A stretch of DNA of 64,000 nt from Amoebophrya sp. A120 (lineage: Eukaryota > Protista > Dinoflagellata), in the NCBI GenBank assembly GCA_905178155.1, contig CAJINV010000004.1, forward strand, positions 4,520,518 through 4,584,517. The letters are read 5' to 3'. The position numbers were made by a program, and so were the translations under genes. The notes beneath the pieces are model-generated. The model made no database searches, was not told the DNA's origin, and worked only from the letters and a program-made list of their open reading frames with translations. This document shows, one piece after another, positions 27,509 to 58,000 of the stretch (its first letter is position 1; each line of letters begins with the position of its first letter).

Positions 27509-28595
27509 TATTTGTAGAAATTCCCACAGAATTTAGATAAGCGTACGGCGCAGGCGCAACCAGGGACACAGCGATAGCGACACGAGGTCGCTTGTGACAA
27601 CAGCTCTCGAGCACGCGTTTGTTGTCCCAGTAGACGATAAAGAGTGACATGCTTGCAGTCTAAGTGAAAAATCTCTTTGCAGCGACTTCTGGATACATTT
27701 TCCTGAGCCAGAAGAGGGATAAAATGCGTTCTCCCCCCGACGTCGAGCTCTCTTCCAATAGCAGAGCCGCGATGGTTTCCTTTGTATAAGAAGTGGGTGG
27801 GTTGTTTCCCAGCAGAAGTTTGGGTTTGATGGTCAAGGCATCCTTAAGGCGCTTGAAACGATTCGCGACAAGCTCCGCGATCTGCCGCCCGTCGAGCCAA
27901 CTTCCCAAACCAAAAATCGAGCGAAGGGAGGAGACCCGATCCCACCGAAGGAAGACGAGGAATTTGAAAAAACGCTGCTAAGCGTCCGAGACAAGCACGA
28001 GCACGGGTTTATGTCGGAAAAGTGCAGAGATTTTTACAAAGACACGCTGGAGAAGTACCTATGGAACGCCCCGCGCCCCAAAACGATCAAACTCTCCCTG
28101 CGAAAGACCCCTTTTACTTCGGTATCTATTCGTGGCCAGTCATTCTTGCAGTTAGTTGCTTCCGAGGAGGTAAAGCGCGTGCGTTTGCATCTCCAGTTCG
28201 TTTTGCAGCTGCGTGTGCCGCCATTTTTCGGCGAGCGGATGCGTTTCTGCGCTTCGGGTCATTTTGGCGACCCGAGCCAGCGATGGGACACGCACCTTGC
28301 CTCTAGCAGCGGCCATATCCCGCTGGTGTGCGTTTCGAAAGTACTTATAGTACTTGGAGGCCGAGGGCGAGGCCCCTCAGGCTGCAAAGGTCTCGCAAAA
28401 GCGTGTGGTAAGGGCGATCGCGCTCTAGCATACTAATAGTCCCTTACTTCTGTGGTGCTCCTGGTCATCTACTTTATTTTTGTGCGAAAAGTTTTTATGT
28501 TTGGCTTTGGGCTCATTGGGTATCATACCCAATACCGTATGCGCAGGGAGATCGTTCGTCATTGTAGTGGTCTGGCCGAAGTGGGTCATCAGAGT

Positions 28596-29773
28596 TATGA
28601 GATTGATAGAGTACTCATTTCAAAAATATTCATAGTGCAAAAAAAAAATTTTTTTCACCGAAAATTGCACTGCGTTAGTTGATGCACCTTTTGCGTGATC
28701 AATTTGCTGCATTTTGTCTATGTATTTCAAATAGAATAGCCAGGAACGTACTGAGATTAAGCTACTTTATCGCTATGCTAAAGTATTGGGCTTTCGTATC
28801 TTCTTCCAGCTAGTTAGTTAAGAAATACTATCAAAGAACCTCCAAAAAAGATCATCGATTGTGGGAGAGATCGAAGAACTAGCGAAGATCCTTTAGATAT
28901 AGTAGCAGCTGCAGCAGCTGCTGTCCTCCGGTAGCCGCCCTTCCGGAAACGACCGCCGGGCCTGGAGAGCTGCTACTCCGTCGCGATGTAGCTGCGTGGA
29001 TTCGCCCGAATCCGCACGCCTACATCGCGACGGAGTAGGAGCTCTCCAGGCCCGACGGTCGTTTGCGTAGATCGGCAGGAGAGCAGCAGCAGCTGCTGCA
29101 GCTAATTACTAATTACAGGAGGATCCTCGAGCGTCTTGGCTCACTCACTCAGCCGATGATCTTTTTGCCATGTACTTCTTTAGTATTTCTTAAGTAGCTA
29201 GCTGGAAGAAGATATCAAAGCCCAATGCTATAGCATAGCTCTTAAGTCGCGTAATCTAAGTACGTTCCTGGCTATCTAGTTTGAATTACATGGATACAAC
29301 TGCTGGCCAGATCGTAAATCCAAGTGACCTAGTGACGGCCAGCATTGCAAACACGACGCAAATCAGGACGCAAATCAGGCCTGATGTCAAATCCCTCGAG
29401 CTTGTTAGGCTCTTGATCTGAATGCCAACCGATCCACCTCCTTAGCCGTAGCCATGCCATCTGTCACGCATGTTGTCCATCCTCGCCTTCATCTTGTGTC
29501 TCAAATCACCCCTGACAGGGTGCGGCTAGTGCCCCTACTAGTGCGTCGATATCAGAACGCAAACCTATAGTGACACGTAGTCACTTAGTGCTGCTAGTAC
29601 TGTTTTCCATCGTGTTTACGTCTGTAGGTTTGTCGTGCGTCTAGGTTTCTAACAACAATGCGCCAACTTGTTCATGCAGAAGACGCCTCGCCTCCTATGG
29701 CGCAACTTTCGGTGAAAAATGTTTTTTTTTGCACTATGAATATGTTTGAAGTGAATACTTTATCAATCTCATA
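28596..29773. mobile_element. 1178-bp non-autonomous TIR/foldback element with introner-type ends
   Basis: About 70-bp imperfect TIR (TATGAGATTGATA...TATCAATCTCATA), TSD AGAGT, internal inverted repeat about 28720-29290. Confidence 0.9.
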
Positions 29774-29827
29774 AGAGTTACTGGCTGTAGTAGGGGCTAC
29801 GGGTCAATTTGTTTCTACGCGTGGTTC

Positions 29828-30886
29828 GTGATGCGGTCAGAAAAAGAGGATGAGGACCTGATCATCATGATCGACGAATACAAGAGAGACCTGGAGTTTC
29901 ACCGGAAACTTGAGGCGGATCCCAACACGATAAACCTCCTGCCTCTCAGTCCCACAGAGAGAGTGTTGATGCCTGTGTTGATGCCTTCATCACTGCAAAG
30001 GGAGCGAGACTTGAAAGAGCGGCGGGATAATATAATCCAAGTAGCGTATCGACACTTTCCTCGAGACCTCAGTCTTGCCGAAGAAAATCTTGTAGAGCCT
30101 CGACCTGGCACAGGATTTAGGTCCGCGAGAGGCTTGCTCGCCACACCTGGTGCCCAGGTCAGGGTCAGGGAGGTGGTGGAAGTTTTAGCGAACAAGGCGC
30201 CGCCCCCGCCGGCAAAGCTGACATCTCTCGTGAAGAGTTTGGAGGGCTCGGAGGTCCCAACGGTCGTGGCCGTCGACAGGGAGTGGCTCTTCACCCCAGC
30301 AGAGGAAGTTGCGGCAGGTCAAAATGGACCAAAGTCAAAGGCAGTCACAATGGACCCGAAATTCGGCGCGCACCGGAATAATAGCCAGCATTTTGCAAAA
30401 CTGCTCCTGCGCCCTTTTTTAATGGAGTCTGACGTCAATTCTCATTCTCTTGAATCTGGCCGGAATTTCATTTCTGGGAATTCGCCAAATTCAAAACGCA
30501 GCGCGTCGGACCACAAAGATAAACACGAAGGTCAATTGTTGAAGACCTTGAAGGACGACCTGAATGATAAAGTGCACGCGCTACTTCGGTTGATGGTGAT
30601 TTACAACAAAAGCCGCGGGACGGGCTCGGGGAGCAGTGTCTTCGCCAACGCGGGCCAGGCACTGCGTGTGCTTGAAGAGGAGTACAACCAGGCCTGCACC
30701 AAGCTCATGAACTACAAGCTGCGGGATGCGAGCGACGGGTGCAGCACGGACGAAACGACCAGGGCCGAGGCGGCCCGAGTGGCCGAGCTCAACTCTGTCG
30801 AGCAGGCCGGAGGCTGGGCAGCGCACGGTCGCACTCTCATGTCACGCTTCGTGCGTAACGCTCTTCGTGGTTTTCGCGCGCCGTAG
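29828..30886 (+). CDS. Intronless hypothetical ORF (352 aa), possibly TE-derived
   Basis: Long ORF lacking the Ser/Thr low-complexity tracts of host genes; lies between repeat-like DNA. Confidence 0.45.
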   Translation: MMRSEKEDEDLIIMIDEYKRDLEFHRKLEADPNTINLLPLSPTERVLMPVLMPSSLQRERDLKERRDNIIQVAYRHFPRDLSLAEENLVEPRPGTGFRSARGLLATPGAQVRVREVVEVLANKAPPPPAKLTSLVKSLEGSEVPTVVAVDREWLFTPAEEVAAGQNGPKSKAVTMDPKFGAHRNNSQHFAKLLLRPFLMESDVNSHSLESGRNFISGNSPNSKRSASDHKDKHEGQLLKTLKDDLNDKVHALLRLMVIYNKSRGTGSGSSVFANAGQALRVLEEEYNQACTKLMNYKLRDASDGCSTDETTRAEAARVAELNSVEQAGGWAAHGRTLMSRFVRNALRGFRAP

Positions 30887-32235
30887 TCGAGAAAACAACT
30901 CATTGAGCGACTCGTCCAAATGGATTTGCGAAATGTTGTAGTGACCAACTTGATCTTGATATTCCGGTGAAAAGCCTGAAAAGCATAAAATATTTTTTCT
31001 TATTGTGTATTAATTTTGTTTTTTGGCGTTGGCGCTATGGCGCACTGGCACTTTCTTTCATCAGGGTTTTCATGGCTGTACCTGCGCCGCTTTGCAGGTA
31101 GAACAGCACATAGGGCATCCCCGCAATGCCTCTGCAGGTGCGCGGTGCTTGCGTGCCGCGCTTTTCGCTTCTTTTTCAAAGGGCCCACTCGAGAAGCTCA
31201 ATAGCACTTGCAGCCCCGTTGTCGGTGAGGATTCGTTTTTGTTCTAAGGCTATTTTCTACAACAACTCAATCTTTATTGTTATTCATATTCTAGCGCCGT
31301 CAGATTTTTCGTATTTTCCGTTTCAGTGTGAAGATGTTTCCCTTGTCTTTTTGTGATTGCGAAGGCAATTGAGCTCGTCCCGCGCTCGCGCAGGCTTGGG
31401 GATCATATTATTTTTCCTCGCGTTAAACAAACTCATTAAATTCCAAACGATTTTTTTCTTGTCCGGGAATTTTTCGCTCTTCTTTTTTCTTTCTCGAATA
31501 GCCAGGCAATGCCACGATTGAAGGCAGACACGCATGACGTTACTTCAATTAGGCACGGCGCTGCCCTTTTGCTATGATAAAATAATTCAAAACACGCACA
31601 AGAAGTATAGTAAGGACGGAGCACATTGAAGATGGCGATTGTGCTTTTTTTGAATGGCCTCCGTTCAAAAGATAAAGTGAGCACATCGGGCAAAGCCCCT
31701 GGCCCTATTGCGTTCAGTCTCTGTATAATTTTCGTTTTTTATTCATCTTACTCATGTATGGTATGCAATTATTTACTATGCGACTGCTAAAATTAGGGCT
31801 GTTCATTATAAAATAGTGCCGTACGTGCTTGTGTCTTCGAATGAAAAAGACTCTGGTGGAGAGAATGACGGCCTTACCTAAGTTTGACAACACCCACCAA
31901 AAGCCGCGGTGGCCTTGAGGCCCACTAGAGGGGCAGACGTTCGTCAAGGATGAAAATGAAGTGGTCCTTCGTTGTTGTGTTTTTGTACTACCACCAGTTG
32001 CATTGCATCTGCAGAGCTTGAGCATCTTGGTTTGGCCGTGGTCCTCTGCAGATGACTCGGGCTTTAGCTTGTAAATCGGTCGTGGTTGTCGTCTAACACG
32101 AATGCTGTCATCTGCTGGGCGTTTGGACCAGATTCGGTTTGTAAATTGCAATGCCTCTTTGATGACGGCTTCCGGCTTTGCGTGCAAAAAATCGATCGCC
32201 AATGTCGTTCTCGTTCGTAACGAGCTTCGGTTTCA

Positions 32236-32542
32236 TATGGAAGCGTCAGGATTGAAATCGTCAAAGCTGAAATGGTTTGTGATGCATAAAATGCTAGACG
32301 CAAAGTGCCTGTCTTGCAGAGCAGGCAACTGAGGCCGATTATAAGCCTGTTTGGGGTGTGAGATAGAGCTGCTAAAATAGCATGACAAAAGCAGTCTTCT
32401 CTGCTCAAACAGCATGACAAATTGGATTTCCATGCTGCCAAAATTTGTCATGCGCCACTTGTAGACTGGGCTCCAGCTGGTATCGCTTTTTTGCATTACA
32501 GATTATTTCAACTTTGACGATTTCGATCCTGACACTCCCATA
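32236..32542. mobile_element. Family D element (TIR TATGGAAGCGTCAGGATTGAAATCGTCAAAG), apparently intergenic
   Basis: TIRs match copies at 40455 and 56663; flanked by a roughly 75-bp direct repeat instead of a 5-bp TSD. Confidence 0.88.
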
Positions 32543-33221
32543 ATGATGGCTGTCGGCTTTGCGTACTGCAAAAAATCGGTCGCCAAGGTCGTTCTCGTTC
32601 GTAACGAGCTTCGGTTTCATTGTCGTTCTTTTTTCAAGAGCAAACCTACGTGCAAGAGAATCGGATACGGATATTATTTATTCAGAACGGTACGCGCTGA
32701 GGCCTAGAATTATTCGCTTCTCGTTCAAGCGAAAATCGGTCCTCACTCTTGTGACTGGAAAACAAAACCCCGCATTCGTGCAGCTTGGTTTCATATATTC
32801 GGTCTAGCATCGCCATTTGTCTGAACGTACTTTCGTCGCGTGCGCGTGTCCTTCGTCCTTTTGTACACTACCCATTGGTCGAAAGCAGTAGTACGTGAAC
32901 CGACGGTCGTCTGTGCCTCACCAGTTGTTTCGTGCAAAAAAATGAGAATCAGTGTACTCTGCTATTTTTTCTACACAACAGCTTCGCACCTCCTCCACAC
33001 GCAGGATATTATTATATTGACCCACTCAGTTCTAAAACAAAAACGGTCATCTGCATGATCCTCGTACAATTCATTGTAATTTTAAGCCCGACCACAGCGA
33101 CAGAACCCTGACCCTCACACTTCTTTTATAATTACTATGATCCCACCTGTTCAGAAATAACTTTTCATCACTTATCCGATCTTCACGCCCCCACATCATC
33201 CTGAAATAAACGGCTGGTAGA

Positions 33222-36200
33222 ATGATGCAGCAACGAAAACGCTTCATCCCGGTCTTGGCGGCGGCAGTTTTGTTTTTGGCCCACTTTCAAGTTCTTCACC
33301 AAGTAGTGTTTTGCTACACCCTGAAGCCCACTGCCGTTCACACGTCGCGAGAAGCGCAGCCAAACAAGGCGCAGCTACACTTCGGGAGCAAGAACAGGAG
33401 CGCCGAGAAATCTACATCGACGGGGGGCGGCGGTAATGCGAAACTTAGTACGCTTTCGTCCTCAACAACACGTAGCCGGATCTCCAACAATGAGCAGCAG
33501 AAGAGCCCTGAAATTGCTGGTGATATTACCTCCAGGTGGCAGGAGGAGATGAAGCAACATGCTCTTGGCGAATCAACAAGTCTAGGACGAGGAAGTAGTG
33601 CCTCCGGCTCCGCATCCGCTTCCGTTTCGGCTTCCTTGCTCGAAGAGGAGGAACAACTCAATCGAGCAAACGCCGACACCAGCACAACTAGTGGAGAAAC
33701 CAATAGCCAGAAACTTCCAACTGGCCAAGTTGTAACCGATAAAATCGCAGCTGCGGTAATGTTGCCTTCTTCTTTATCGCCGGAGACAATGACAAAACAC
33801 AATTCTGCCACCATCTCGCGCGGCGGGCCCGCGCCGATGCTCGGCGCCCCGAGTGCAAACGGACAAAGCACAGCTGCCTCGTCCGCCTCTCTGGAATCTC
33901 TGAACGAGAAGCAGGACGCGCTGGATGCGAAAATGGATCAGGTTTCAGCGGATTTGACGGCGAAATCCGACAGCATTCTTCTCTATCACAGGAAAAAGTG
34001 TTGTTTGACGTTAAGAACAAGTAGTACGGAATTTGTGATGCAGCAGCGCAGCCAATACCAAAATTCGTCATGCATAGCATGGTGCATGTACTAGGCTAGA
34101 CTTGTGATGCATTAATACTGCTGCAATCTGTGAAAACGAAATAAACCGCTCACGTATAACGCTTTTGCTTGTGATATCCTCCAGGTCGAAACCATGAATG
34201 CGGATGTGAAGGCGCAAGTGGAGAGCATGCGCAGCCAAGTGATGGCGGAGGTGACAGCGGTGCAGTATCCTGATTAAAAACGTCCCCACACCAGAGTCAA
34301 GATGGGAAATCTCCTAGACAAATCAACCCGCTTTGGTTGTTTGGCATGACAAGTCTGTCCTCGTAGTGTAGCCCTGTTTCAGGTAGGTCAGCAGCGTCAC
34401 AGATGTATCATAGCATGCTGGTGGTCCTACCATTAGCATTACAAATCTCAAGACACGATTAGAAAATGCTTCTCATAGGGCTCCGCATGAGATGAAACTT
34501 TTTTGGCATGCAGAATTGCATGACAACTCTGGGCCTGGGGACGTTTTTACACGGGATATGCAGGGTAGCATCACGAACGAGGCCCGGCTGAAGGAAATGA
34601 TATGAAAGCCTCAGAATGCAAATCCTCAAAGTGGAAATAATTTGTAATGCAAAAAAACGACTCCAGTCGAAGCGCCATTTCTAGTCGGCGCATGACAAAT
34701 TTACCGGGCACTCAAAGCATGTCTGTCATGCTAGCTAGGGCAAAGGGGTGCCCTTCTCTCGTGCTGATCAGCAGCACAGTTCTGAACCCGTAGAAGCACA
34801 ATATCAATAGTCGGCCGCCATTGCGTCCTGCTCTGCAATACAGTCTTTTTGGTGTCGCATTTCATGCGTCACAAATTATTTCCACTTTGAGAATTTCCAT
34901 TCTGAGGCTTTCATATATGATTGAAGCCGCCGCGAAGGATTTCTTGCCGCCCAAAGTTATCCTGAGTAAGAACATCTTCATCATCCCCACGAGGACCTGG
35001 ACCCCATAGTCAAGTTCTTGGGAACTGAGCAACACAGTAAATCCAGAGTTTTTGGGCGTCAGCACGCATGACAAGTTTTTCTCCGTATTGTATATTATGC
35101 AGGCTACTCCTACTTACCAGGGACAGCAGCATCAAAAATTCGTCTCGTCCTCATCCTGTTTACAGCATTACAAATGTTGCCAAAGCACGACTGACAATGC
35201 CTCTCATGGGACTGCGCATTTTTACAAGTGTAGTTTCTGTGATTGCAAATCTGCATGACAAGAGCTCTCGGGTGGAGACATTCTTACTCGGGATAAAGGT
35301 TGTCGAACTGTTGGAGGCGATGGATTGGTATGAACTGCAAAAGTATCGTACTCGTATAAATGCATGACAAATTCCCTCAGCATGAGAAATAAAATTTGTA
35401 ATGCGGATCTACCTTGAGAAAAAAAATGCATGATTGCAATACGCGTGCGATACTTTTGCACAGGATAATTGGGACCAGCTTGAAGCGGATGCGATTTCCA
35501 TCAAAGATATCAAATGCCAATATGTCTACTGGGTCTGGAAACTTGTGATGCTAGTTTGTGAATGGAGGTGGCCACTACATTCATTGCAATACGCAGCTAT
35601 GCATGACAAGTTTTTTAAGCTCATACGTGATTCGCTTTCTGCATGGAAAGGTGCATTGTTGCGTGACAGGCAATCGACTTTTTTGTTTTTCCTGCTCCTG
35701 CATTACAGATTTAAGCGACAACGGCATGCGCATGATCATGCGCACGTGAGACTACAAGCATGACAAACTTGCATTCGTCCAGACCCAGACATGATCCTTG
35801 CACTGTATAAAAAAAAAGGTTGTCTCCGGAGTGGTCTGCCTGGGGGTGTTCTGGGTCGTCAGCACCGTGTTTTTTATGGCGTTCTCAAACGTTACATTCT
35901 CAACTGTTACATGGATTTGTGATGCAAGAACAGCAATAGTAAAAGTGGCAATATTGCAGCTTTCGCATCACAGATTTGCCACAGATTATCATGCTGCTTA
36001 GCCATTCGAAAATTTGTCATGCTAAGCACCTTGATCAAGTGGAGGCTGATGGCAACTTTGCATGACAAATCCGTGTAACAGTTGAGAATGTAACCGTTGA
36101 GAATGCCATACTTTTGATCCTCGGTGTCTGCCTCACCTGTTGCCAGGTGGCCAATCTGTCGCGCACCGCCGCGGCCAACGCGGCGCGAGGACCGGGTATG

Positions 36201-39049
36201 ACAGTGCACAACTCCCCCTCCTTCTCATAAGTATAGCATGAACAGCAATAGTACAAGCATCAGAAAGAGTGCCGGTTTTGCATCACAAATTTGCACTGGA
36301 TTATAGTGTCATTTAGGCTACCAGAACTTGTCATGCATAATAGTGACAGGAGGGAAAGCTGCGTGGATTTGGTACTTTGCATGAGAAGTGAGAACGAGAG
36401 GGAGTTGTGCACTGTCATACCGGGGCCGGTTGTGCCACAAGTCCAAACTGTAGTGGAAGAGTACCTATGCTGTGCAAAAGTATCGTAGTAGTATAAATTG
36501 CAATACAAATTGGGTCAGCATTACAAATTAAATTTGTAATGCGGATTTGCCTTAAGAAAGAGATTTGTAATGCATAACTGCAATTACTACGAGTACGATA
36601 CTTTTGCGCAGGATAGTACCACTATGTCGACGATGTCACAACGGCGCCGCCGACCTCGAAGAATATCAAATGTAAAAATGTCTGGGTCTGGAAGAGTGCA
36701 TGTTTGTCATGCTTGTCTGGCATGACTCTTGAATCTGTCATGCACGTTACCCAAGAGCTTAAGGGGTCCCATTCAATCGAAACCGAAACCTCGTGTATAG
36801 CTATCAAAAGGTGGAGCTGATATTTTCAAAGGTGGGGGTCGAAATTTTCAAAGGTCGGTTTTCAAATTTTCAGTTGTGGAATTTGTTAAACAAATTTCAC
36901 AACTGAAAATTTCAAAACCGACCTTTTCAGAATATGAAAAGCAACCCAAGCGACTCAACTTCTTGACCGATTACAACACCAGAGGACCGAGATCGCTGCC
37001 ACCGACGCGGAGACTTTGGCTCACGGCAACTGCTGCGGGGCCGCAGTGCGCCGCGTTCTGCCTTGCAGGTAAGTAAGCGAGGTGTCGCACGTAGCCCCCC
37101 GGTTTCGGGTGGTGCAACTGCCGCCAGCAAGGGCGAGAAACGGCCAAGGCTAGGCGGACAAGGAAAAGCGGAAGACACAGAAGCGCCCCAAAGCAATGCC
37201 GGAGGCAATGCAGGGGCTGGCAAGGCAGGCAAAATAGCGGGTCGGCGAGCTATTTCGCCGGCGGTCCCGACTCCCAAAGCGCGAGCCCAGCCGGAAACGG
37301 GCGAGAGGCGGAGCGAGGGCGCGCCCGCGCTTCTTGGCGCGAGTGAAGCCGGGCCCGGCAGCGTTCCCCCCGGTTGTTTTTTTTCCCAAGCGGGGGGCCG
37401 CTTACTCTCCCTCGCCAACATTTGGCGTCCGCCGGGCCGGCCAACAAAATGCGCGACGTCGGTGCCGCGCAACGCTGCGCGCAAAGTTAATGACAAAAAA
37501 CGGCGGCACTTTTCCGCATCCAAAGCCGGCACTTCAGCAGACATCTTCTCGGCATTTCAACAGAAACGAGAAAAAACGTCGAAAAAGCCGGCGTCCAAAA
37601 TCTCCAACTTCGGAATCATTCCACAGGACATAGGTTCTCAGCCTATAGTTATAGGTTGAGAACCTATATGGCCAAAAATCACATATCCGAGAATTCCGTT
37701 TTTCGGAATGATTCCGTCAGATGAAGGTTGGATACCTCCAAATGGAGGTTGGATACCTTCTGGAGAAGGTTTCAACCTTCTCCAGAAGGTATCCAACCTC
37801 CATTTGGAGGTATCCAACCTTCATCTGACGGAATCATTCCGAAAAACGGCACAGCATCCGGAGCAAAAAAGCATCGCACTTTATAGGTTCTCAGCCTATA
37901 GCTATAGGCTGAGAACCTATATCCTGTGGAATGATTCCGCAGCCTAGGAGGTTTGGGTGACGGAATTTTGGAGGTTTGGGTGACGGAAGTTCCAACCGTT
38001 GGGCGATTTATCTCAACCGAGCCTAGGAATTATTACGCCACTGTCTGGCGCTTCTCGATGTCTTTTCGAGAAAGTGAAAGGACATCGCGACGAACCTGCG
38101 GCGCGATGGCTGCGGGGCTGCCACTCTTTTTTTGTATTGTGCGCAACGGAATCTGCGCAATTCGTTCCACTTGATACGCACCAAAAAAACCTGCCAGCCC
38201 GGTAGGAGCCCCGCGCCAAAAGTGGAAAGCGCCAGGCGCCGGGGCGGCACGGGGCTGGGAGAAATTACCGGCGGGCGGCGATCTTCTTGCAGTCTGTGCG
38301 CTGCAGCGCTCGCGAAGTTGCCGTCTGGGGAGTGAAGCACTTGCGCCCCCCAGCGTTACAATGGCCCGCGCTGCAGTTTCGCTGCCGCAGGAAGCATGCC
38401 CCCCGCGGGCTCGCGCCCGACGAGGCGCGTAAGACTTTGCGGCCGCGTTCTCACGATATATCTCGCGGAAGCCCTTTTTTTTCAAGTCCCCAGGCGCCCA
38501 GGCTCAGGCATGACCATCAAAGGTCGGGCCGAAAAGAATCCTTGAACTTTGAAAAAAACCCTGAAAATTTGGCGAAAGAATCTGGCTTCGTGCAGCATCT
38601 TTTTGGCGCGATTTTGCTGATTTTCTACCAAAAATAACGCCGCACGAAGCCAGGCGCTGTCGCCGAGTTTTCAGTTATTTTTTGCAAAAAAAAAAATTCA
38701 TTTTCGGCGGACCCCACCTTTGAAAAAAGCGACCCCCACCTTTGAAAGCTCCAGCTCGAGCTTTTGGGAGCTATGCACGAGGTTTCGGTTTCATAGAATG
38801 GGACTCCATACAAGAGCTCCATTTTTCTGTGATGCAAGAACGCAGTTTATCATGCAGAATAGGCAACACCTAGAAGCTCAGAAACGTGTCATGCTGAGCC
38901 AGCATTTGTGGCCTCATCATGAGACGCCACCCAGCATCACAAGTTTCCAGACCCAGTCCCAGACATTTTTGCATTTGATAAAGAAGCGGGCACAACGATC
39001 ATCGTCGCGGGACGCCATTTCAGAAACCTTCATTTCGCCCAGAAGATAA
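33222..39049 (+). CDS. Signal peptide / coiled-coil / single TM / Cys-tail membrane protein with 10 introner introns
   Basis: Removing 10 elements, each with one TSD copy, gives a continuous ORF: ...SDSILL|QVETM...TAVQ|GSITNEARLKEM|IEAAAKDFLPPKV|VELLEAMDW|DQLEADAISIK|KKVVSGVVCLGVFWVVSTVF|LILGVCLTCC...RGPG|PVVPQVQTVVEEY|HYVDDVTTAPPTSKK|RAQRSS...ISPRR*. Confidence 0.85.
33984..34176. mobile_element. Introner family G (TATCACA..AAAAAGTGTT)
   Basis: TSD ttctc/tcctc; related to the 56131 copy. Confidence 0.82.
34266..34558. mobile_element. Introner family H (TATCCTG.TTAAAAACGTCCCCA)
   Basis: TSD TGCAG; TIR; frame restored. Confidence 0.88.
34601..34915. mobile_element. Introner family I (TATGAAAGCCTCAGAATG; related to D)
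   Basis: About 45-bp TIR; TSD aatga/tatga. Confidence 0.88.
34958..35295. mobile_element. Introner family J (TATCCTGAGTAAGAA)
   Basis: TSD aaagt/aaggt; the mismatch allows a GT-AG reading. Confidence 0.82.
35329..35467. mobile_element. Introner family B
   Basis: TSD ATTGG. Confidence 0.92.
35508..35809. mobile_element. Introner family A (diverged)
   Basis: TIR with indels; TSD aaaga/aaaaa. Confidence 0.8.
35875..36110. mobile_element. Introner family F (TATGGCGTTCTCAAACGTTACATTCTCAACTGTTACA)
   Basis: About 37-bp TIR; TSD ttttt/ctttt. Confidence 0.88.
36197..36419. mobile_element. Introner family E (TATGACAGTGCACAACTCCC)
   Basis: TSD CCGGG. Confidence 0.92.
36466..36615. mobile_element. 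Introner family B
   Basis: TSD GTACC. Confidence 0.92.
36760..38810. mobile_element. Non-autonomous hAT-like DNA transposon
   Basis: 8-bp TSD CAAGAGCT (36752-36759, 38811-38818); imperfect TIR TAAGGGGTCCCATTC...GAATGGGACTCCATA; subterminal TTTCAAAGGT repeats; no transposase ORF recognised. Confidence 0.85.
37611..37939. repeat. Nested palindrome/foldback
   Basis: Outer inverted arms plus perfect 76-bp inner arms (37696-37771 / 37774-37849). Confidence 0.92.
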
Positions 39050-40347
39050 GTTTTTTCGAGTGATCAGCGAAGGGCTTCTTGTTCCTTTCACGGGGAGACC
39101 GACTGTCGAAATAGAAACTTCATAAGAGCTAAAGCACAAAAAGCTTTATCTAGTACATGTTCGGCCAACTGCTCTAACTGCTCCATTCTAGCGTCATTTT
39201 AGTATTTATTTGTTCTTGTTCAGCTCCTTTTAAGTATTTGAGCAGATCACAGACAAGCAAAGGATCGTCCCCACGGACGAGGACCAATTGTTCCTAATCG
39301 GACGCAGCTTCTGCTGTTGCTGGGTCACCAGGGGAGGCTACATGTCCTTCTCGGTGAAACATGAAGAAGATGAAAGGTGACAGGTTGCTGTTGGATATGC
39401 AACACACGACCTATGTGACGCAGGTGCACATCCACATGGTTTGTCATTGTCTCTGGTGTTCATCATCACAGAAACGTTGTGTAAAGGGACCTTGCACTCG
39501 CCTTATCCACAATAGGGCTGTTAGTATGTGTATGTTCACACAAACGACGTCTTGATGATCGCAACGCTTTCTAAACGACAAAGGATAAAGAAGTTCCCGA
39601 AAAAATGAAACAAAAATCAAAATGATCGTGATCCTAGTGTGACGCTCGCGGCGACGGCGAGGCAATGTTGTTGTTGATCGGAAATAGTAATAAATTCGAG
39701 ATCCCAAGAATATGTTTGTGATCTTAGTGGATATTGAACGTGATCATGATGATTTTGTGACCACAAAAAGATCCACGGCAAAAGTTAAACCCAAGTAACC
39801 CCTTGGGAGGTTGGGCAACCATTTCCTGCTCGTTGTATGGAGGACGAGGATCCCGCCGTTGAAATAAAATGAAAACGACTTCTTGATGCATGCCTGTGTG
39901 GTTAACATCATTTCTTTCAATGTCCTGACACCGAGAAAAAATTACAACAGCGGTTGTAGCAAACAAAGAACCTCATTTGGAAGCGTGTTGTATTGTTGGG
40001 CTATTTGAAGACTTCTGGACTACAAAGTCGACAATCATCATCTTCATTTGAGATTATTTGTTTCGATTTATTTATCTGGACGTGTACGATTTTACTTTTA
40101 GTTTTACCCTAGTTTTACCTTCTCCAAGCTCTGTCGTGCTTTATTGTACCAGCACTACTTTTTAAAGGGTGCGCGTTCGAACACGAACTCGAAAAAAAAA
40201 AATTAAGTCTTGGACAATAACTAAGAAACCAATTGCAAGTTTTGAAAGACAGCAGTGGTGCGACGAGGACAACTACACAACGCCAAGAAGAACTTTCGCA
40301 GCTCCTGTCTGAAGAAGAGAACGACCAGCCTCTATATCATCACCAAA

Positions 40348-42970
40348 ATGACACCAGCACAACTTCATTCCTCTTCCGGCTCTTCAGTATCGCCCTGCTC
40401 CACCAGTGCAAGAGGATCATCTTGTTCGAGAAGTACTACGAGACTGATTCGCTCTATGGAAGCGTCAGGATTGAAATCGTCAAAGTTGAAAAAGTTTGTG
40501 ATGCATAAAATGCAACCCACAAAGTGCCTGTCTTGCAGAGTAGGCAACGGAGGCAGATTGTAAGCCTGGTGAGGAGTAGAAATAGAACTGCTAAAGCAGC
40601 ATGACAAAAGGCGTCCTGCTTACCCAAACAGCATTACAAACTGGATTTAGGCACCACCAAAATTTGTCATGCGCCGCTTGGCAACTGGGTTCCAACTGGC
40701 ATCCATTTTATGCATGGCAAATCATTTCCCGAGGATGATGGTGATGGCTTCGGTCCGCCTGACTCCACGACCTGGTGGCCGAACCATCTGCGGTGAGGTG
40801 CCCTTACAGGTTGTGTAGTGGTTTCGGTCGGTTTAGCATGGCAAATCATTTCAACTTTGTCGATTTCAACTCTGACACATCCATACGCTCCACCACCCCC
40901 TCGTCCCTCGCCATGCGCGGCCTGAGCGTCCTTTTGTTCTCCTTCTCGCCGGTTCTCCTCGCCGTGCCCGGTTCCGCCGCGGCTCGACCGACGTCCTCGA
41001 TCGACGCGAAGCTGCAGGTGTTGGACGACAAACTGAACGATTTGCAGCTGGAACTGTCCGCCGGCTTTGAAAGCATCGAGAAGGGGTTGCAGAAACTGGA
41101 GACGAAGATTTCGGAATCGAGTGACAAATCCACGGCACAAATCGAGAAGAAGCTGGCAGAAGTCTTAGACGACAAAATTTCGGACATCGAGGTATGACAG
41201 CGCACAACAACTCCCCCTCCCCTCATTTGTCATGCAAATAAATCCCAAATCCAGTCGCTGCCTTGTGGCACTGCTTGCATGACAAATTCGGGAAGGAGCC
41301 CAAATAGCACTACACTCGTCCAGTGTAGTACATTTGTCATGCGAAACCGGCATTCTTGCTGATGCTTGTATTGCCGTTCATGCTATACAAATGAGGCGGA
41401 GGGGGAGTTGCGCACTGTCATAGGAGGTGACCATTTCGGATAAACTCACGTCCAACATCGATTCCCTGATCCCCTCGGACTTGTCGGAATTCCTAGGCGC
41501 GGGTAACTGGGAACCCCTCATCGAGCGGTACGTCGGGAACTACAAGGACGTGCTGGACCGCGTAACGTTGATCGGAATCTGGGTGGTGGTCTTCCTCGTG
41601 CTCTGGTTCACCATGATGCTGGCCACCTTTTGCGCGGTGCTCTGCATGTGCTGCTGCGGGGGGTACTGCTGCCGCTGCAACGTAGCAAATGTACAAATGT
41701 CTGGGTCTGGAAGATTGCCAGGTTTGTCATGCACATTTTGCATGACTCCTGATGTCTGTGATGCATGCCCTAGCGTCACAGATTTTGTGAGGGCTTCCTG
41801 ATGCCGATACCGCATGACAGATGCTCTTTCCGTGTAGCAAAACTTGGAATCTCTTTGCTGCTCATGCAATACAGATTTTTTTAGAATCCAAAATCAGCAT
41901 GACAAGTTGGATTCTTCCAGACCCAGACATTTTTACAGTTGATACAACGGGCCGGTGGACGACGTTTTTGCGAACGGCGGGAAAGTGTTCACGCATCGAC
42001 GCGAAAACAACAAGGGCCCGCGGGGAACGGAACTGCTCTCGTTGCCGTCCGGAATGGGGGGTTTTTACACGTACAAACCACTGCCGCAGTCGGGGGAAGA
42101 GGAGGACGAGGAGGAGACTAGAGAGATCAACGAGCAGAGAAACAGCATGTTGACCTCCACTTCCCAAAGAGGTTCGGAAACGGTCGCGCCCATGAACGGA
42201 GACGGTGGCGCAGATCATGCAGCAGGTGGAGCAGCGATTATGTTGCCGGCGCCCGGATCCTCTTCTCGTACCGTCGCTGGCTCCGCGCCGCGAAAGCGGC
42301 GATCTTTGTCCGAGCATTCTGGCAGGTCCGTCGTGTTGGGGCAACCCGTATCAAATGCAAAAATGTCTGGGTCTGGAAACTTGTAATGCTCAAAGTGAAT
42401 GAAAGACGCACTGCAATACGCAACTACGCATGACAAATTTTTTGGCTGCCATGTCTTACGTATTCCGCATGGCAAACTGCGTTTCTGAATGACAGGGAAG
42501 AAGGCTTTTTCCTGCCTACGCAACACAGATTCTCGAGTCATGCCAGACAAGCATGACAAACCTGCATTCTTCCAGACCCAGACATTTTTGTAGTTGATAA
42601 CCCGTGCGGGCGATGTCGCCGATTTCGAGTGGAATGATCCCAGGAGGAGTATCAAAGTGAAAAAAGCCCCCACCCCATATCGGACACGAAATTTGTGATG
42701 CTGTATTTGAGTACACAAATCGACTTGTATTGCTAGAAGGCCAAGAGACGCAGCTGCGGCCTGAATTGCAGGCAATCTGTCATGCTGTTTCCCACTTCCA
42801 GTTGCCTCCTGTCATGTTGGAGCTGCAAGCCTTTCCCACGCTAGGCAGCACTACAGTCCGCATCTTTTGCCTTCTAGCATCACAAAGCTGATTTGTGACC
42901 ACAAATCTGCATCACAGATTTCCGTTTTGATATGGGGAGGGGGGATTTTTCCTTTCGATAAGGAGCGTGA
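40348..42970 (+). CDS. Coiled-coil / TM / Cys-rich membrane protein, probable paralog of the 33222 gene; 5 introners
   Basis: Removing elements at 40455, 41193, 41683, 42349 and 42650 yields ...RLIRS|TTPSSLAMRGLSVLL...SDIE|VTISD...CMCCCGGYCCRCN|GPVDD...LGQP|VRAMSPISSGMIPGG|A*. The start could instead be ATG 40913. Confidence 0.8.
40455..40885. mobile_element. Introner family D with internal insertion
   Basis: TSD CGCTC; 431 bp versus about 306 bp for the other D copies. Confidence 0.9.
41193..41422. mobile_element. Introner family E
   Basis: TSD cgagg/ggagg; GT-AG reading possible (41192-41426). Confidence 0.88.
41683..41944. mobile_element. Introner family A
   Basis: TSD CAACG. Confidence 0.93.
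42349..42599. mobile_element. Introner family A
   Basis: TSD ACCCG. Confidence 0.93.
42650..42960. mobile_element. Introner family C (TATC...GAAAAA.GCCCCCACCCC)
   Basis: TSD AGGAG; related to the 48425 copy. Confidence 0.9.
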
Positions 42971-52321: not shown

Positions 52322-55062
52322 TAGTATGTTGAGGCTGCGGGGGGTGGACATCGATCACCTCCAGCTTCGGTGTGGTAGCCACGAAGCGGCCCTATATGTG
52401 CAAGTGGTTCTTGTAGTGCTGCATGGTCGTTTTTAGTAGGGCGCACAACCATAGATATGCTGATGAAAAAGCATAGATATTGATATTCATATTGAATAAA
52501 CTGCTGCGGATGCAACATAACCTCAACTCGGCAACATCGAGCTTTTCTGTCTCAGCGAAAGTAGTTCCGCGGATTAGATGTGCTCGCACCAGTAGTACTC
52601 GATGCCATTTAATATCCCCCCGAAGGTGACACATTCGATTTAAGTAATACGTTTTCCCCAGACGATTCCTTACATCGCCTATAGATGGAATACAAGATAC
52701 ACTGTAGCCCAAAACTACAGGTAAACACACGTCACGAGCCACTTTGGAGAATAAAAGACGGAATTGTAAAAATACCTCTTTTAATTTTCAAAGTCTCGCT
52801 CCTCGGCACGAGCACCAAAGACTCATGGAAAATGAACCATCCACAGCGTTAAGCTACCCACTTCATATACAACGTTCAGAAAGTCCCCCCCCAGACCAAT
52901 GTTTAGCAAAAGAAGTATAAAATGTTTTCGACACGTGTAAAATGTTTTCAGAACGCTCAGCTCAAGACTTAGGTTTTTTCGTAGCGTAAAAGCTACGGGG
53001 ATACGCTACTGAGAGAAAGTTTTTCTAGTAAGTACAGTCTTAGATAGTCTGTTCCAATCAAAACTGTTGTAGTTGTAAGTAACAAGACAAAGACTCGTCT
53101 CTACAAAAATAAATGCGGTGAGCAACAAAGCCAATTTTTTTTTGTGGAATTTCTGTAGTGAGTGTGAGTAACTTTGTGAAGTGTAAAATTCCAATCTCCA
53201 ACATGAGTATTGACCCCGAAACAAATCTTTTTTTTTTTGGGAGGTGATTCGACCTGTTCAGTAGTTTTTCGGATACGATCTTCACTAGAATTCCATACAT
53301 AGTTCTATCCCGCCCTACTTGTTACATATCGAGCGCCAGCAGGCTTAAACGGCGTTCATTCGCGACCTTCTGTTTATTTTCCCTTGTACACTGACAATCA
53401 TTTGTTCTGTGCTAGCAAGCTGTGCTGTCACGGCTGGTCTTTAGTCAGGTAGTTGTTTATACATCGTCTTTTCGCTATAGCAGACATACACAACAAACAT
53501 ACTTTTTTTCGATAGCAATGTACTCGAGGACTTCGATTTGGTGGACAATTTGACCTATTGAAGTCCGTATTTTTCCTGTCCTTCCATTTGTCAGATTGAT
53601 GTTCTGATTCGTATCGGAATTGACAAATGAAACCAATGCTGACGTAATATTGCAGTGTGGTTGATTTTTTGTACTTTTTGAACACTATTCTATCCCAAGA
53701 ACGCAGTAGTATCTTATCTCGTCGGAGCTTCACGATACGTAAAAGTCGATCGCGTTGTGACGTACAACAGAATGTCGAAGTAGTGTAGATTTTCCATTCG
53801 TGATCGTGAAGCTTTTTCAATTTTCAAACGCGACAAGAAAGAACAAGAAGAACGGAAGATCCTGATCCTGATTTCTTTTTCTTCACAACACTACTAGTAC
53901 TAGTCCTCCACATTTATATCGTCCTCCAAAACGCCGAGAGCGGCACTGTTTTTTTTTTCGTTGTTACTAGACGTTTCGATCAGCTGTCGTTCATGAACGC
54001 ATGGACCCGCCCGTGCATGGGCGCATGGCAGCTTGGTAAACGTCGATTCTCACTACAGAACAAGTAAAGACAACTTAGTATGAGTTTGTAGCTCAAGACG
54101 AAAGTGAAAAGTTCAGTAGAGTCAAATTAATTGTAAAAGTTAAAGTATAGAATACAAAAAAGCGTCCTTGTGGATTTTTTTCTCTTGCCTCCAGGCTTGT
54201 CCGCGTCTTCAGCACGCAAGGTACATCCAGCAGCGACCGGTCCTTTGCTTTCACACAACGGAGGATCACTGATTCTCTTTGTCCAAAACGCTCAGCAATT
54301 TGTTTTTTCAACAGCGAGGCCCGAACGTGTACGTGACCACCTGCTTGATGAAGGTCTAGCAGCTACTCCAACATCCACTGTGCTTGATGTGCAGACTGGG
54401 CGGGTCCTCGTGAGGGTTAGAATAACATCTGCGGTGGCAATCGTGGCGCCTAGGCGGGCTGCACTTTGACGTCAGCTTTTAGCGGAACAATAAACGACCG
54501 GAAGAAGTATACTACGGAGATCAACACGTGTAATATACCGACGAAGTAGCCGACAAAATCTGAATCTCCATCCGCTTCAGAGAATAAAGGAAAGCGCGAC
54601 TGGAAAGTTATTTTTTCAAAGAATAAAGAAAAAGATAAAGATATCTACATCTACTTTCGAACACCGAGAATAAAGACACAACGAGACAGCAGACGTTCTC
54701 AGGTAGGTGTTGTTTGATACTTTCACTTGATGTTTGATGTCGACACTATCGTTTTCTGGATTCGTTGGTTTCGGTTTGTGGAAAGCTATTCCGAATGTGA
54801 ATGCCTTCAGCTCCAGGATCGTCGCGCGGCATGATTTCAGTTGCCACCGCATCGATCTGGTGGATGCCTATTACTCGTGGTTGAGAAATAAGATCACGTC
54901 CATCATAATCACGACAGGTTTGGCATAGGCATCCCAAGCGAGAACTTCTTCTACGACAAGAAAGAAAAAGAAAGCGACTTATCCCAAGCAGAACTACAAT
55001 TCCATTTCTCTTGACCGATCGGACCATAAGTACACGCGCCCGCCGTGCAGTCGAGCAGTACG

Positions 55063-58000
55063 ATGATGGGCGGGACGAGCGAAGATAATTCTACCAGCGC
55101 GATCATGGACCTGATGCTAGGCACAACGACCGGCGATGAAATTATAAATCAACACGACCCAGCACCTCATGGTAGTCCAGAGCTAACCTTCAATCATGCC
55201 ACCGGCCAGATGGTGATGACTACAACGGCGCCCCCTGGTGCTGGTCCACCTGCTCCCGCGCTGGCCGCCGTCGTGCCCAGTGGAGTAGGAGGGGTCGCAA
55301 CCACTATTACAGGTGATCAGGAACTACAATGCTCAACACAAAATCACAATGCGACTGCGACTTCGCGAGGTGACCGTACTCCGGTGACCTTTGAAGAATT
55401 GATGAACGTGCAAAGCGACGACCCTCTTCTTGGGGGTCAGACTGCTTCCGGACAAGGTTCTTCAGGCTCTTTCGCTCCTTTTAATAATCCCGTTTCGTCG
55501 AACAGCGGGGCCGCAGTAGATAATAATTCCATGAATGCTGGTGACATGGAACTGGTCACTTGGGCCCTGCAGCAAAATGTTCCGGAGGTGGATAATCGAC
55601 ATCAGCAGCCATTTGTTGCTACTAATATCCACTGGAACAACCACATCAACAACCAAGGGCCCCCGCAGCTGCTGATGCACCAGATGGGTCAACACCAAAA
55701 CCAACAATATCTACACGTCGCAACTACTAATAGTAGTGCCCCGTGTAGTACTACGACATCTAGAGGCGCCGGGGCAGGACCACAACTACATGGGCAGCAC
55801 AACAACCCGCACATCATGATGAACAACTATCGATTACCTTTCGACGCGACTGTCGCAGGGAGTGGAGGGGGAACGCCTGTTCTCGACGGGGGCTTCTTCG
55901 GGGGCGGCACCACTACGTATGCATTGCAAAAGGATCGTTCGTGCTAGTATAAATTGCATCACAAAAAATTCCAGCAAGAACAGAAGTGAAATTTGTAATG
56001 CTGTTTCAGGTTTAGAAAGAGATTTGTCATGCATGAATGCAATTTATACGAGTGCGATACTTTTGCACAGGATACTACGCCTCAGATGTTGATGAACAAC
56101 GGGGGCGGTTCTTTGTTTAACCACAATGCTTATCACAGCAAAAAGTGTTAACGTTAACGGAATTTGTGATGCAGCAATGCATCACAAAACATGCCAAAAT
56201 TTGTAATGCATAGCACGCATATTGGGCTACATTTGTGATGCATGACTGCAATTTGTGAAAACCGTTACCGTTAACACTTTTCCTTGTGATAATGCTGTTA
56301 ACATGAACATCAACCCGACCACAGCAAGAACCGCTAACACTCCCAGAGGCGGCATTGGTTGCGCCGGTGCTCCTATCAAATGTAAAAATGTCTGGGTCTG
56401 GAAGGATCCGAACTTGTGATGCGCATTTTCGAACACAGAAAAATCTCTCATGCATAGGTAGCAAAAGGTGCTCAATTCTGTCACCAAAGTGGGGGGTTTC
56501 TCATGCGGGTTCGGCATTGCGGAGGCTTCTCGAAACCTGTGATGCTAGAGCTTCCATGCCAGACCTTCTGTGTCATGCAAAAACAGCATGAATCTTCCAG
56601 ACCCAGACATTTTTACATTTGATAGCTCCGACGCCGACCGCTGCGCAGCTGAACGGCGGAGCTATGGAAGCGTCAGAATCGAAATTGGCAAAATCGAAAA
56701 ATTTGTGATGCACAAAATCGATGTCAGTTGGAGACTCAGTTTCCAAATGGCGCATGACAAATTTCGGGAGTACCCAAATCCAGTCTGTGATGCTGTTTGG
56801 ACAAAGAAGACTCCTCCTGCAGTGCCACTCTGGCAGCACATTGCATACCCCTAAACAGGCTTGCAATCGGCCTCATTTGCCTGCTCCCCAATACAGGCCT
56901 TCAGTGCCCTACATTTTACGCATCACAAATTTTTCGATTTTGTCGATTTCGATCCTGACACATCCATAGGAGCCTGCTCCCCTTTGGTGGATCCGTTCGC
57001 GCCGAGTTGGCTCGTGGGCACGCTTTTAGAAGAGGAGAAGCAGCTGAAGCCGGAAGATCAGAGCGAAAATAAAGACGGCGCTGCCGCTGCTGATTCTTCA
57101 TCTTCCGGAGGTGACAAAACGTCGGCTGTAGACAACTCTGGCACAACTACTACTTCCGGGGGGAAAAACAAAGAAAACAAGAAGCAACTCGACGAGCTTG
57201 TGGTAAAGGATGTCTCGACGCCGCTCGCCATTTCAGGAGCGACACCGTTCGGCGCCGGAGAAACGACTAAAACGCCGCGGGGTTTTACCAGCAACGCGAT
57301 GAACATAACGGGGGCGCAGCAGGCGCAAAATGGAGAACCAACATTGCGTATATGTTTAATATAAACTGATGATTCTTTTGCTTGGAATTTCGCATTGACT
57401 TCTATCTTGAGCTAGCAGTCTCGAATTCTGATTTGCTCCTCGTAAAATTTAGATTTATGTATCATGACAGCTTTGCCGTCAACAAACGGCTCCTCCACTG
57501 GTACTACCCATGTTGCGGCGGCCAACGCAGCCGGCGTGAGCTCGACCGGTGCGAATCAGATTTTCAATGTGGTAGACCCGTCCCCGATGAACAAAAATAA
57601 CGGCGAGCAGAGCTGCATGAGCGGCGACCAGAGTAACCCATTCTTGCAATTCAGTGGCGACGCGCTGGAGGCAGCGATTGACGAAGCGGTGGGGCAGTGG
57701 AAGTTTGACGACCCAACTCCTTTGAACGACGGAGGAGGAGGGGGTTCCGTAAGTTGTAGAAGAGATCATGCGGCGAGGACTTGTTACAATGATCTTCACA
57801 ACAACAATTTTTATAGGGCCGGCGCGGGCCCGTCCCGTGGCAAAAGCAAAATGAATAACAACAGCTTTCATTATCATGGGAGCAGAGGTGGGTCCTCGCG
57901 CGGAGGTGGTGGAGGTGGTAATTACTACGATCAGTACCACAAGATATGAACTGCAAAAGTATCGTACTCGTATAAATGCATTACAAATTTCCTCAGCATG

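Follow-up and report, generated by a model that had tools for sequence, protein, structure and literature searches.

The stretch considered here, 64,000 nucleotides (nt) of the dinoflagellate Amoebophrya sp. A120 (contig CAJINV010000004.1, positions 4,520,518 to 4,584,517 of the forward strand; hereafter the window), carries on its plus strand a gene for a membrane protein (33222..39049, from ATG to TAA) whose coding sequence is broken by ten insertions with inverted-repeat ends, E1 to E10. An open frame of 253 codons starts at 33222 (+) in the genomic DNA, and beyond it stop codons appear in all frames. All ten insertions are skipped in contigs of a sequencing run taken to be RNA (X3). Joining the exons at these ten joints gives 11 exons with 1272 coding nt, that is, a stop-free frame of 423 codons, and the resulting protein of 423 amino acids (aa) is letter for letter a public entry (CAD7945572.1, P0001, 'unnamed protein product [Amoebophrya sp. 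A120]') that is recorded on 1 contig. Thus, the processed gene model is already public as CAD7945572.1.

All ten elements begin with TAT and end with ATA. They have terminal inverted repeats (TIRs) of 21-57 nt and are flanked by a 5-bp direct repeat, the target site duplication (TSD), which is perfect in E2, E5, E8, E9 and E10 and matches at four of five bases in E1, E3, E4, E6 and E7. In order along the plus strand, they are E1 (33984..34176, 193 nt, TSD copies TTCTC/TCCTC), E2 (34266..34558, 293 nt, TGCAG/TGCAG), E3 (34601..34915, 315 nt, AATGA/TATGA, TIR of 57 nt at 89%), E4 (34958..35295, 338 nt, AAAGT/AAGGT), E5 (35329..35467, 139 nt, ATTGG/ATTGG), E6 (35508..35809, 302 nt, AAAGA/AAAAA, with decayed terminal pairing), E7 (35875..36110, 236 nt, TTTTT/CTTTT, TIR of 53 nt at 91%), E8 (36197..36419, 223 nt, CCGGG/CCGGG), E9 (36466..36615, 150 nt, GTACC/GTACC) and E10 (36664..38980, AAGAA/AAGAA, 28-nt arms at 93%). 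E10 measures 2317 nt including a nested element, N1; the other nine range from 139 to 338 nt. When the lengths skipped in the transcript contigs are summed, inserted DNA makes up 4556 of the 5828 nt of the locus (78%), in line with the initial annotation, which had put it above 75%. The same annotation had counted ten elements in eight families. Eight is also the number obtained with BLAST at E <= 1e-3, where E5 is linked to E9 (same family and orientation) and E6 to E10, with an additional weak internal match between E7 and E8; a looser grouping by global alignment adds E2-E4 and E7-E8 links and leaves six groups. Further copies of E1, E3, E5, E6, E8 (at 41193-41422), E9 and E10 lie within the window, and the matches of E2, E4 and E7 there are limited to each other or to E8. 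TIRs, a fixed 5-bp TSD, a lack of coding capacity, multiple copies and empty sites in a relative are the features of miniature inverted-repeat transposable elements (MITEs). No autonomous copy was found in the 64-kb window, and the superfamily is not nameable from a 5-bp TSD alone. A census of the whole window for TAT..ATA ends, a TIR score of at least 12 and a TSD matching at 4 of 5 bases or better gave 25 elements, compared with one in the reversed sequence and none in the shuffled sequence, so that the pattern is not due to chance. Nine of the ten elements of the locus pass this census; E6 fails it, its ends being decayed.

The evidence for removal comes from X3, a set of Logan contigs aligned to 33000-39300; the label of the run ('RNA?') is itself a guess. 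These contigs skip 198, 298, 320, 343, 144, 307, 241, 228, 155 and 2322 nt at E1 to E10, respectively, and in every case the skipped length corresponds to the element together with one of its two 5-bp repeat copies. The ten joints lie on three contigs with depths of 43.9, 47.7 and 36.1; the joined pieces contain no other letters, and they continue into the flanks of the locus (33003-33980 and 38981-39300). Unjoined pieces are present in X3 at a depth of 3.7-5.1, and the interior of N1 (2 kb within E10) has a depth of 0. A processed transcript is thus represented at all ten joints. The initial annotation had regarded non-canonical excision as both real and efficient. The first part stands, with ten joints and nine elements that have no canonical reading; the second is based on contig depths, from which efficiency is poorly measured. 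Run X1, which is DNA-like, contains 0.75 of the sampled words of the locus; only 22% of the locus is exon, so that X1 must contain the elements. Raw RNA runs were uninformative about expression: X10 and X11 gave 0 reads on 33000-39300, and X9 gave 135 reads, all of them partial and on two repeated element pieces, which therefore derive from other family copies. Four further joints in X3 (34306>35150, 35373>36564, 36695>38934 and 36722>38931) were considered as alternative splicing and rejected. Their sides of 21-24 nt lie inside repeat families, and the joints are read as coming from contigs of other family copies.

If each intron is taken as the element plus the downstream TSD copy, exon 1 occupies 33222..33983 (762 nt); it is free of elements and holds an N-terminal hydrophobic stretch and a low-complexity region. 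The X3 joints then define, also on the plus strand, exon 2 (34182..34265), exon 3 (34564..34600), exon 4 (34921..34957), exon 5 (35301..35328), the smallest with 25-28 nt, exon 6 (35473..35507), exon 7 (35815..35874), where the transmembrane stretch begins, exon 8 (36116..36196), exon 9 (36425..36465), exon 10 (36621..36663) and exon 11 (38986..39049), which ends with the stop codon. The gaps between adjacent elements are 89, 42, 42, 33, 40, 65, 86, 46 and 48 nt, exactly the 33-89 nt first described, and the micro-exons measure 25-84 nt when one TSD copy goes to the intron. The protein had been described as reading without a stop through a signal peptide, a coiled coil and a transmembrane segment. 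This is reasonable: the 423-aa frame has hydrophobic stretches at residues 7-31 and, as the transmembrane segment, 329-364, and a long helix is predicted at residues 222-302 in a single-sequence structure model of low confidence (mean predicted local distance difference test score 55.8), which was used for helix positions only. A Pfam search of the protein gave no match above the cut-off. Exon 1 as a query matched two proteins among 3912 candidates, the A120 protein itself at 100% identity and a second one, P0002, at 80%, and word-based searches with exon 1 and with residues 225-423 found no homologs besides these two. As far as word-based searching reaches, the gene appears to be restricted to its lineage.

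P0002 leads to a closely related lineage. A scan of metagenome contigs with the A120 protein retrieved L001, a contig of 9885 nt that is the source of P0002 and is syntenic with 28008-40725 of the window. E1, E2, E4, E6, E8 and E10 are present in L001, the last as an ortholog of 252 nt without N1; E3, E5, E7 and E9 are missing. Gaps of exactly 320, 144, 241 and 155 nt mark the missing elements in the alignment, equal to the lengths skipped in the transcript contigs, and each empty site has a single 5-bp target copy. Over 40 nt at each empty site, L001 and the joined window sequence are equal save for 0-1 substitutions in the flank. Empty sites with one target copy mean that E3, E5, E7 and E9 were inserted with duplication of a 5-bp target, and processing of the transcript gives back the sequence that existed before insertion. 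Loss of introns through reverse-transcribed mRNA would be expected to take neighbouring introns together, and the alternation of old and new elements argues against it. The presence/absence comparison suggested at the outset thus yields six shared elements, four empty sites and an empty site for N1. P0002 is a public 253-aa open reading frame (ORF) at 5104-5862 of L001 that runs from the start codon into E1 and ends with ...SILLYHRKKCS, which indicates that automatic annotation of L001 left this element unspliced. Each lineage also has a private element outside the gene: one of 1178 nt at 28596-29773 in the window (TSD AGAGT) and one of 307 nt at 1880-2186 in L001 (TSD GTGGG). Their insertion sites are ~60 nt apart, and they are independent gains, one per lineage.

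The same alignment separates the exons from the elements by their rates of change. After removal of its six elements by the analogous rule, L001 has an open frame of 416 codons. By the Nei-Gojobori method, the ratio of non-synonymous to synonymous substitution rates (dN/dS) between the window and L001 is 0.45 for the whole gene, 0.56 for exon 1 and 0.115 for exons 2-11 (8 changes are synonymous and 3 non-synonymous; Fisher p = 8e-4). Over 472 aligned sites, the micro-exons differ at 11 and contain no gap column. For the six shared elements, the aligned length is 1548 sites, 114 of them mismatched (~7% divergence), with a further 115 gap columns; the micro-exons thus evolve ~3x slower (p = 2.6e-5). 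The micro-exons are under purifying selection, as had been supposed from the open frame, and the elements are much less constrained. Neutral evolution of the exons is not seen.

The insertions are nested four levels deep (gene, E10, N1, and N2 with N3). N1 (36760..38810) is a TIR element of another type, 2051 nt long with a TIR of ~80 nt at 84%, and it is flanked by a perfect 8-bp TSD, CAAGAGCT, a hAT-like length. Its site in L001 is empty, and a 205-aa ORF within it has no Pfam match. N2 (37608..37942) is a foldback element inside N1 with 61-nt arms that are 93% complementary, and N3 (37696..37849), inside N2, is a perfect palindrome with 76-nt arms, 100% complementary and 2 nt apart. None of the three is assigned a strand.

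A 9-mer, GCATNACAA, is shared by the elements. It occurs 81 times in the whole window on both strands, compared with 2.56 expected and a largest shuffle of 7. It is almost confined to TIR elements, is found in all families (in the locus, for example, at 34033-38942) and is frequently present as two inverted copies, each 32-50 nt from an element end. Judged from this distribution, the 9-mer is probably a subterminal binding site common to the elements, a candidate for recognition by a transposase or an excision factor. A test for its conservation in the shared elements (112/5 for motif columns versus 857/125 for other interior columns, p = 0.006) was rejected as biased, because the sites had been picked on the window sequence, which alone would roughly halve the expected differences.

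Where exactly the transcript is cut is limited by the TSD, which lets each joint slide by 1-6 bases. All readings of the boundaries were therefore checked over every allowed position. GT..AG can be read in E4 only (1/10), and GC..AG or AT..AC in none of the ten; a TA..NN reading is possible in all ten, and the 3' dinucleotide is free. The five imperfect TSDs (E1, E3, E4, E6 and E7) are informative here, and in 5/5 cases the mRNA carries the upstream copy. For E3 and E7, this upstream copy is also the one at the empty site of L001. E6 limits the 5' cut to at most 1 nt before TAT. The downstream TSD copy of E1 has drifted further in L001 (CCCTC), as would follow from that copy being part of the intron. 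All ten would be accommodated most simply by an intron that consists of the element and the next five bases.

Elements are removed irrespective of their orientation. E6 and E10 belong to one family and lie in opposite orientation (alignment score 86.5 in reverse and 36 forward), and both are removed, so that the signal for removal must be a symmetric one. Eight of the nine short elements have 19-24 of their first 25 nt paired with the mirror position in the minimum-energy fold, and the fold of E5 has a z score of -4.05 relative to dinucleotide shuffles. Guidance of removal by a terminal hairpin is suggested by this anatomy together with the literature.

Taken together, the locus is very probably an A120 membrane-protein gene with ten MITE-like introners that are missing from its transcripts, their removal likely being guided by the hairpin; under this explanation, the ten elements belong to the published introner element (IE) system of A120. 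Each intron would open with the first T of TAT and close five bases beyond the terminal ATA, and this offset of five bases would undo the 5-bp stagger of the transposase. The hairpin formed by the TIRs would likely act at the RNA level, drawing the exon ends together and setting the cut sites, with splice-site dinucleotides unused. As to machinery, a hairpin-positioned variant spliceosome, which was proposed by Farhat et al. after the U1 small nuclear RNA (snRNA) was not found, has roughly an even chance of being the responsible one. The main text of that study gives the splicing mechanism of A120 as unknown and U1 as not found (Farhat 2021, PMC7789003).

Several points weigh against this explanation or parts of it. 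That the run X3 is RNA is only a guess, and the ten joints are never all on one contig. A cut at 0 and +5 relative to the element is compatible with all ten elements, yet it is pinned by E6 alone, and the informative cases number five. The positions of direct repeats in A120 are described as variable (Farhat 2021, PMC7789003). E6 is still removed in the window strain with its terminal pairing down to 9/25, which shows that a perfect terminal stem is not required. TIR mismatches are G:U in 29 cases and A:C in 26 (p = 0.79, a comparison of low power), and the lack of a G:U excess gives no sign of selection for RNA pairing beyond the symmetry of the TIRs in DNA. In the shared elements, the termini have only a weak advantage in conservation over the interiors (p = 0.07 on substitutions, 0.019 when gaps are counted).

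Machinery is the only respect in which the strongest rival differs. Here the spliceosome takes no part: an endonuclease would recognise the TIR hairpin and cut at its base and five bases beyond, and a ligase would join the exons. This would suit elements that can have any 3' dinucleotide, that begin with TA and not GT in nine of ten cases, that are removed in either orientation and whose cut appears to lie at a fixed offset from the hairpin. It also has a parallel in the nonconventional introns of euglenids, for which such a route is suspected and which share a hairpin, TSD-like repeats and non-canonical ends and are released as full-length circles, not lariats (PMC11282704). However, A120 is reported to have an almost complete set of spliceosomal proteins and every snRNA except U1 (Farhat 2021, PMC7789003), non-canonical introns of tunicates coincide with a border-tolerant spliceosome (PMC11282704), and the sequence code of Euglena introns is present in 0/10 of the elements. 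A route without the spliceosome is accordingly rather unlikely.

The other rivals concern the level at which the elements disappear, and both are far less credible. The elements could be cut from DNA, as ciliate internal eliminated sequences are, with the transcripts made from an element-free DNA copy. The excision is indeed exact and restores the empty site, as precise DNA excision would, but the window assembly and the independent assembly of the sister lineage both keep the elements in DNA, X1 contains them, and the low-depth unjoined pieces beside the high-depth joined pieces in X3 look like pre-mRNA. The shared elements have also persisted through ~7% divergence, and the introns of A120 were defined by RNA-seq against the genome (Farhat 2021, PMC7789003). 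Elimination from DNA is therefore very improbable. Marginally more improbable still is an origin of the joined contigs from an element-free paralog or retrocopy, which would make the locus a dead, transposon-riddled copy. The joined contigs match the locus with no other letters and continue into its flanks, the micro-exons are under purifying selection relative to a syntenic ortholog that also bears elements, and 1 contig is on record for the public protein.

The elements are strongly clustered. Of 25 gaps between adjacent elements in the window, 14 are shorter than 100 nt, where 10,000 random trials gave 1.16 on average and never more than 6; outside the locus, 5/15 gaps are as short. Further arrays lie at 55918-56968 (four elements) and 57945-58583 (three), with spacers of 38-82 nt. 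When elements are removed by the same rule, a frame of 1338 codons opens across four elements (57446-62167) and another of 479 codons across four more (55030-57361). The gene at 33222-39049 thus has the heaviest element load in the window and is not different in kind. Within it, all ten insertions fall in the last 513 of the 1272 coding bases (P = 1.1e-4 under uniform placement), and each of the four young insertions sits between two old ones (P = 0.0066). This young-between-old pattern could reflect homing to resident copies. A regional hot spot or regional tolerance explains it equally well, because the two lineages gained different elements ~60 nt apart at a site where each lacks the element of the other. 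The more ambitious reading joins homing within ~90 nt of resident copies, which would build the micro-exon arrays, to an orientation-blind ruler that would measure 0 and +5 from the structure and use no splice-site sequence, and to a machinery other than a standard spliceosome. As a package, it is unlikely to hold.

A public protein of 2912 aa (P0003) maps to 58707-58877 and then from 58916 on, leaving a gap of ~38 nt (58878-58915) in a continuous ORF. This gap may be a very short intron without TIRs. P0003 starts downstream of the cluster at 57945-58583, and it adds no informative TSD case. An Rfam search of the whole 64-kb window gave 0 matches, and a Pfam search of 18 window ORFs, including that of N1, gave one IQ-motif match only, in another gene. 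Among ORFs of at least 200 aa, 21 of 27 are on the plus strand, and the cumulative GC skew rises throughout the window; both fit the unidirectional gene clusters described for the genus.

Phenomenon, genome and gene model have all been published before. The value of the present analysis is confirmation, together with locus-level detail on cut geometry and orientation that may be useful for work on the excision machinery. Transposons that enter coding sequence and yet are exactly removed from the message carry almost no cost for the host. Such near-costless insertion may explain a rapid gain of tens of thousands of introns, and it bears on the origins of introns in general. The locus is a compact and well-controlled example, with six older and four younger elements, empty sites in a sister lineage and constrained exons of as little as 25-28 nt.

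Exact removal of inserted DNA from genes is known from several systems. Internal eliminated sequences of ciliates are transposon-derived inserts in coding sequence whose exact removal restores the frame, and they are cut from the DNA of the somatic nucleus. The evidence here points instead to removal at the RNA level, and the elements are retained in the DNA assemblies of both lineages. Introners of Micromonas, Aureococcus and Polarella are likewise transposons with TIRs and TSDs that make introns and spread genome-wide, but they carry or co-opt GT-AG ends (Farhat 2021, PMC7789003; Gozashti 2025, PMC12130899), whereas nine of the ten elements here have no canonical reading. MITE-derived introns of the tunicate Fritillaria borealis are, as described in PMC11282704, recent, species-specific and removed despite non-GT-AG ends. 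They differ in preferring AG-AC and AG-AT ends and in being linked to a tolerant spliceosome (PMC11282704); the 3' dinucleotide is free in the present case.

The nonconventional introns of euglenids come closer in structure. Their borders are non-canonical and carry TSD-like repeats, and pairing between their inverted ends draws the flanking exon ends towards each other (PMC11282704); they also share a suspected MITE origin, unequal spacers on either side of the stem and an unknown machinery (PMC11282704; PMC12501133). Euglenids are an unrelated lineage, and the geometry is different: here the very first base of the intron already belongs to the stem, with a 3' spacer of 5 nt. The signature given for Euglena, 5'-N3CDG...CH'GN5-6|R (Nomura 2025, PMC12501133), is found in 0/10 elements at any allowed cut position.

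The closest match is the IE system of A120 itself. In Amoebophrya A25 and A120, non-canonical introns are reported to exceed 60% of the total, with 29,850 repeated introns in 1954 families; IEs have inverted repeats of 8-20 nt and direct repeats of 3-5 nt, the A120 inverted-repeat motif being TAT, about seven variable bases and then at least three A (Farhat 2021, PMC7789003). The same structure of inverted and direct repeats is present in 15% of canonical A120 introns, and the main text of that study reports no transposase in A120 (Farhat 2021, PMC7789003). Diverse TIR transposons are reported in A120 by a later study, which also speaks of 'tens of introns in a single gene' (Gozashti 2025, PMC12130899), and these elements are described as restricted to a subset of the genus (2025 genome paper, PMC12005148). 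The ten elements share with them the TAT inverted repeats, direct repeats at the borders, non-canonical hairpin ends, many families and genes with multiple elements. GT-AG ends are lacking in 9/10, the inverted repeats that would form the hairpin extend to 21-57 nt compared with the published 8-20 nt, the direct repeat is 5 nt in 10/10, and the motif is recovered as TAT in 10/10 and as AAA within positions 9-16 in 6/10. The genome is the same, the protein being 100% identical to the A120 entry, and there is no difference in kind. Compared with the main texts on A120, what is added for one locus is a constant 5-bp duplication, empty sites in a close sister lineage, the TSD copy that is kept in the mRNA, removal of copies of one family in either orientation and the shared motif GCATNACAA.

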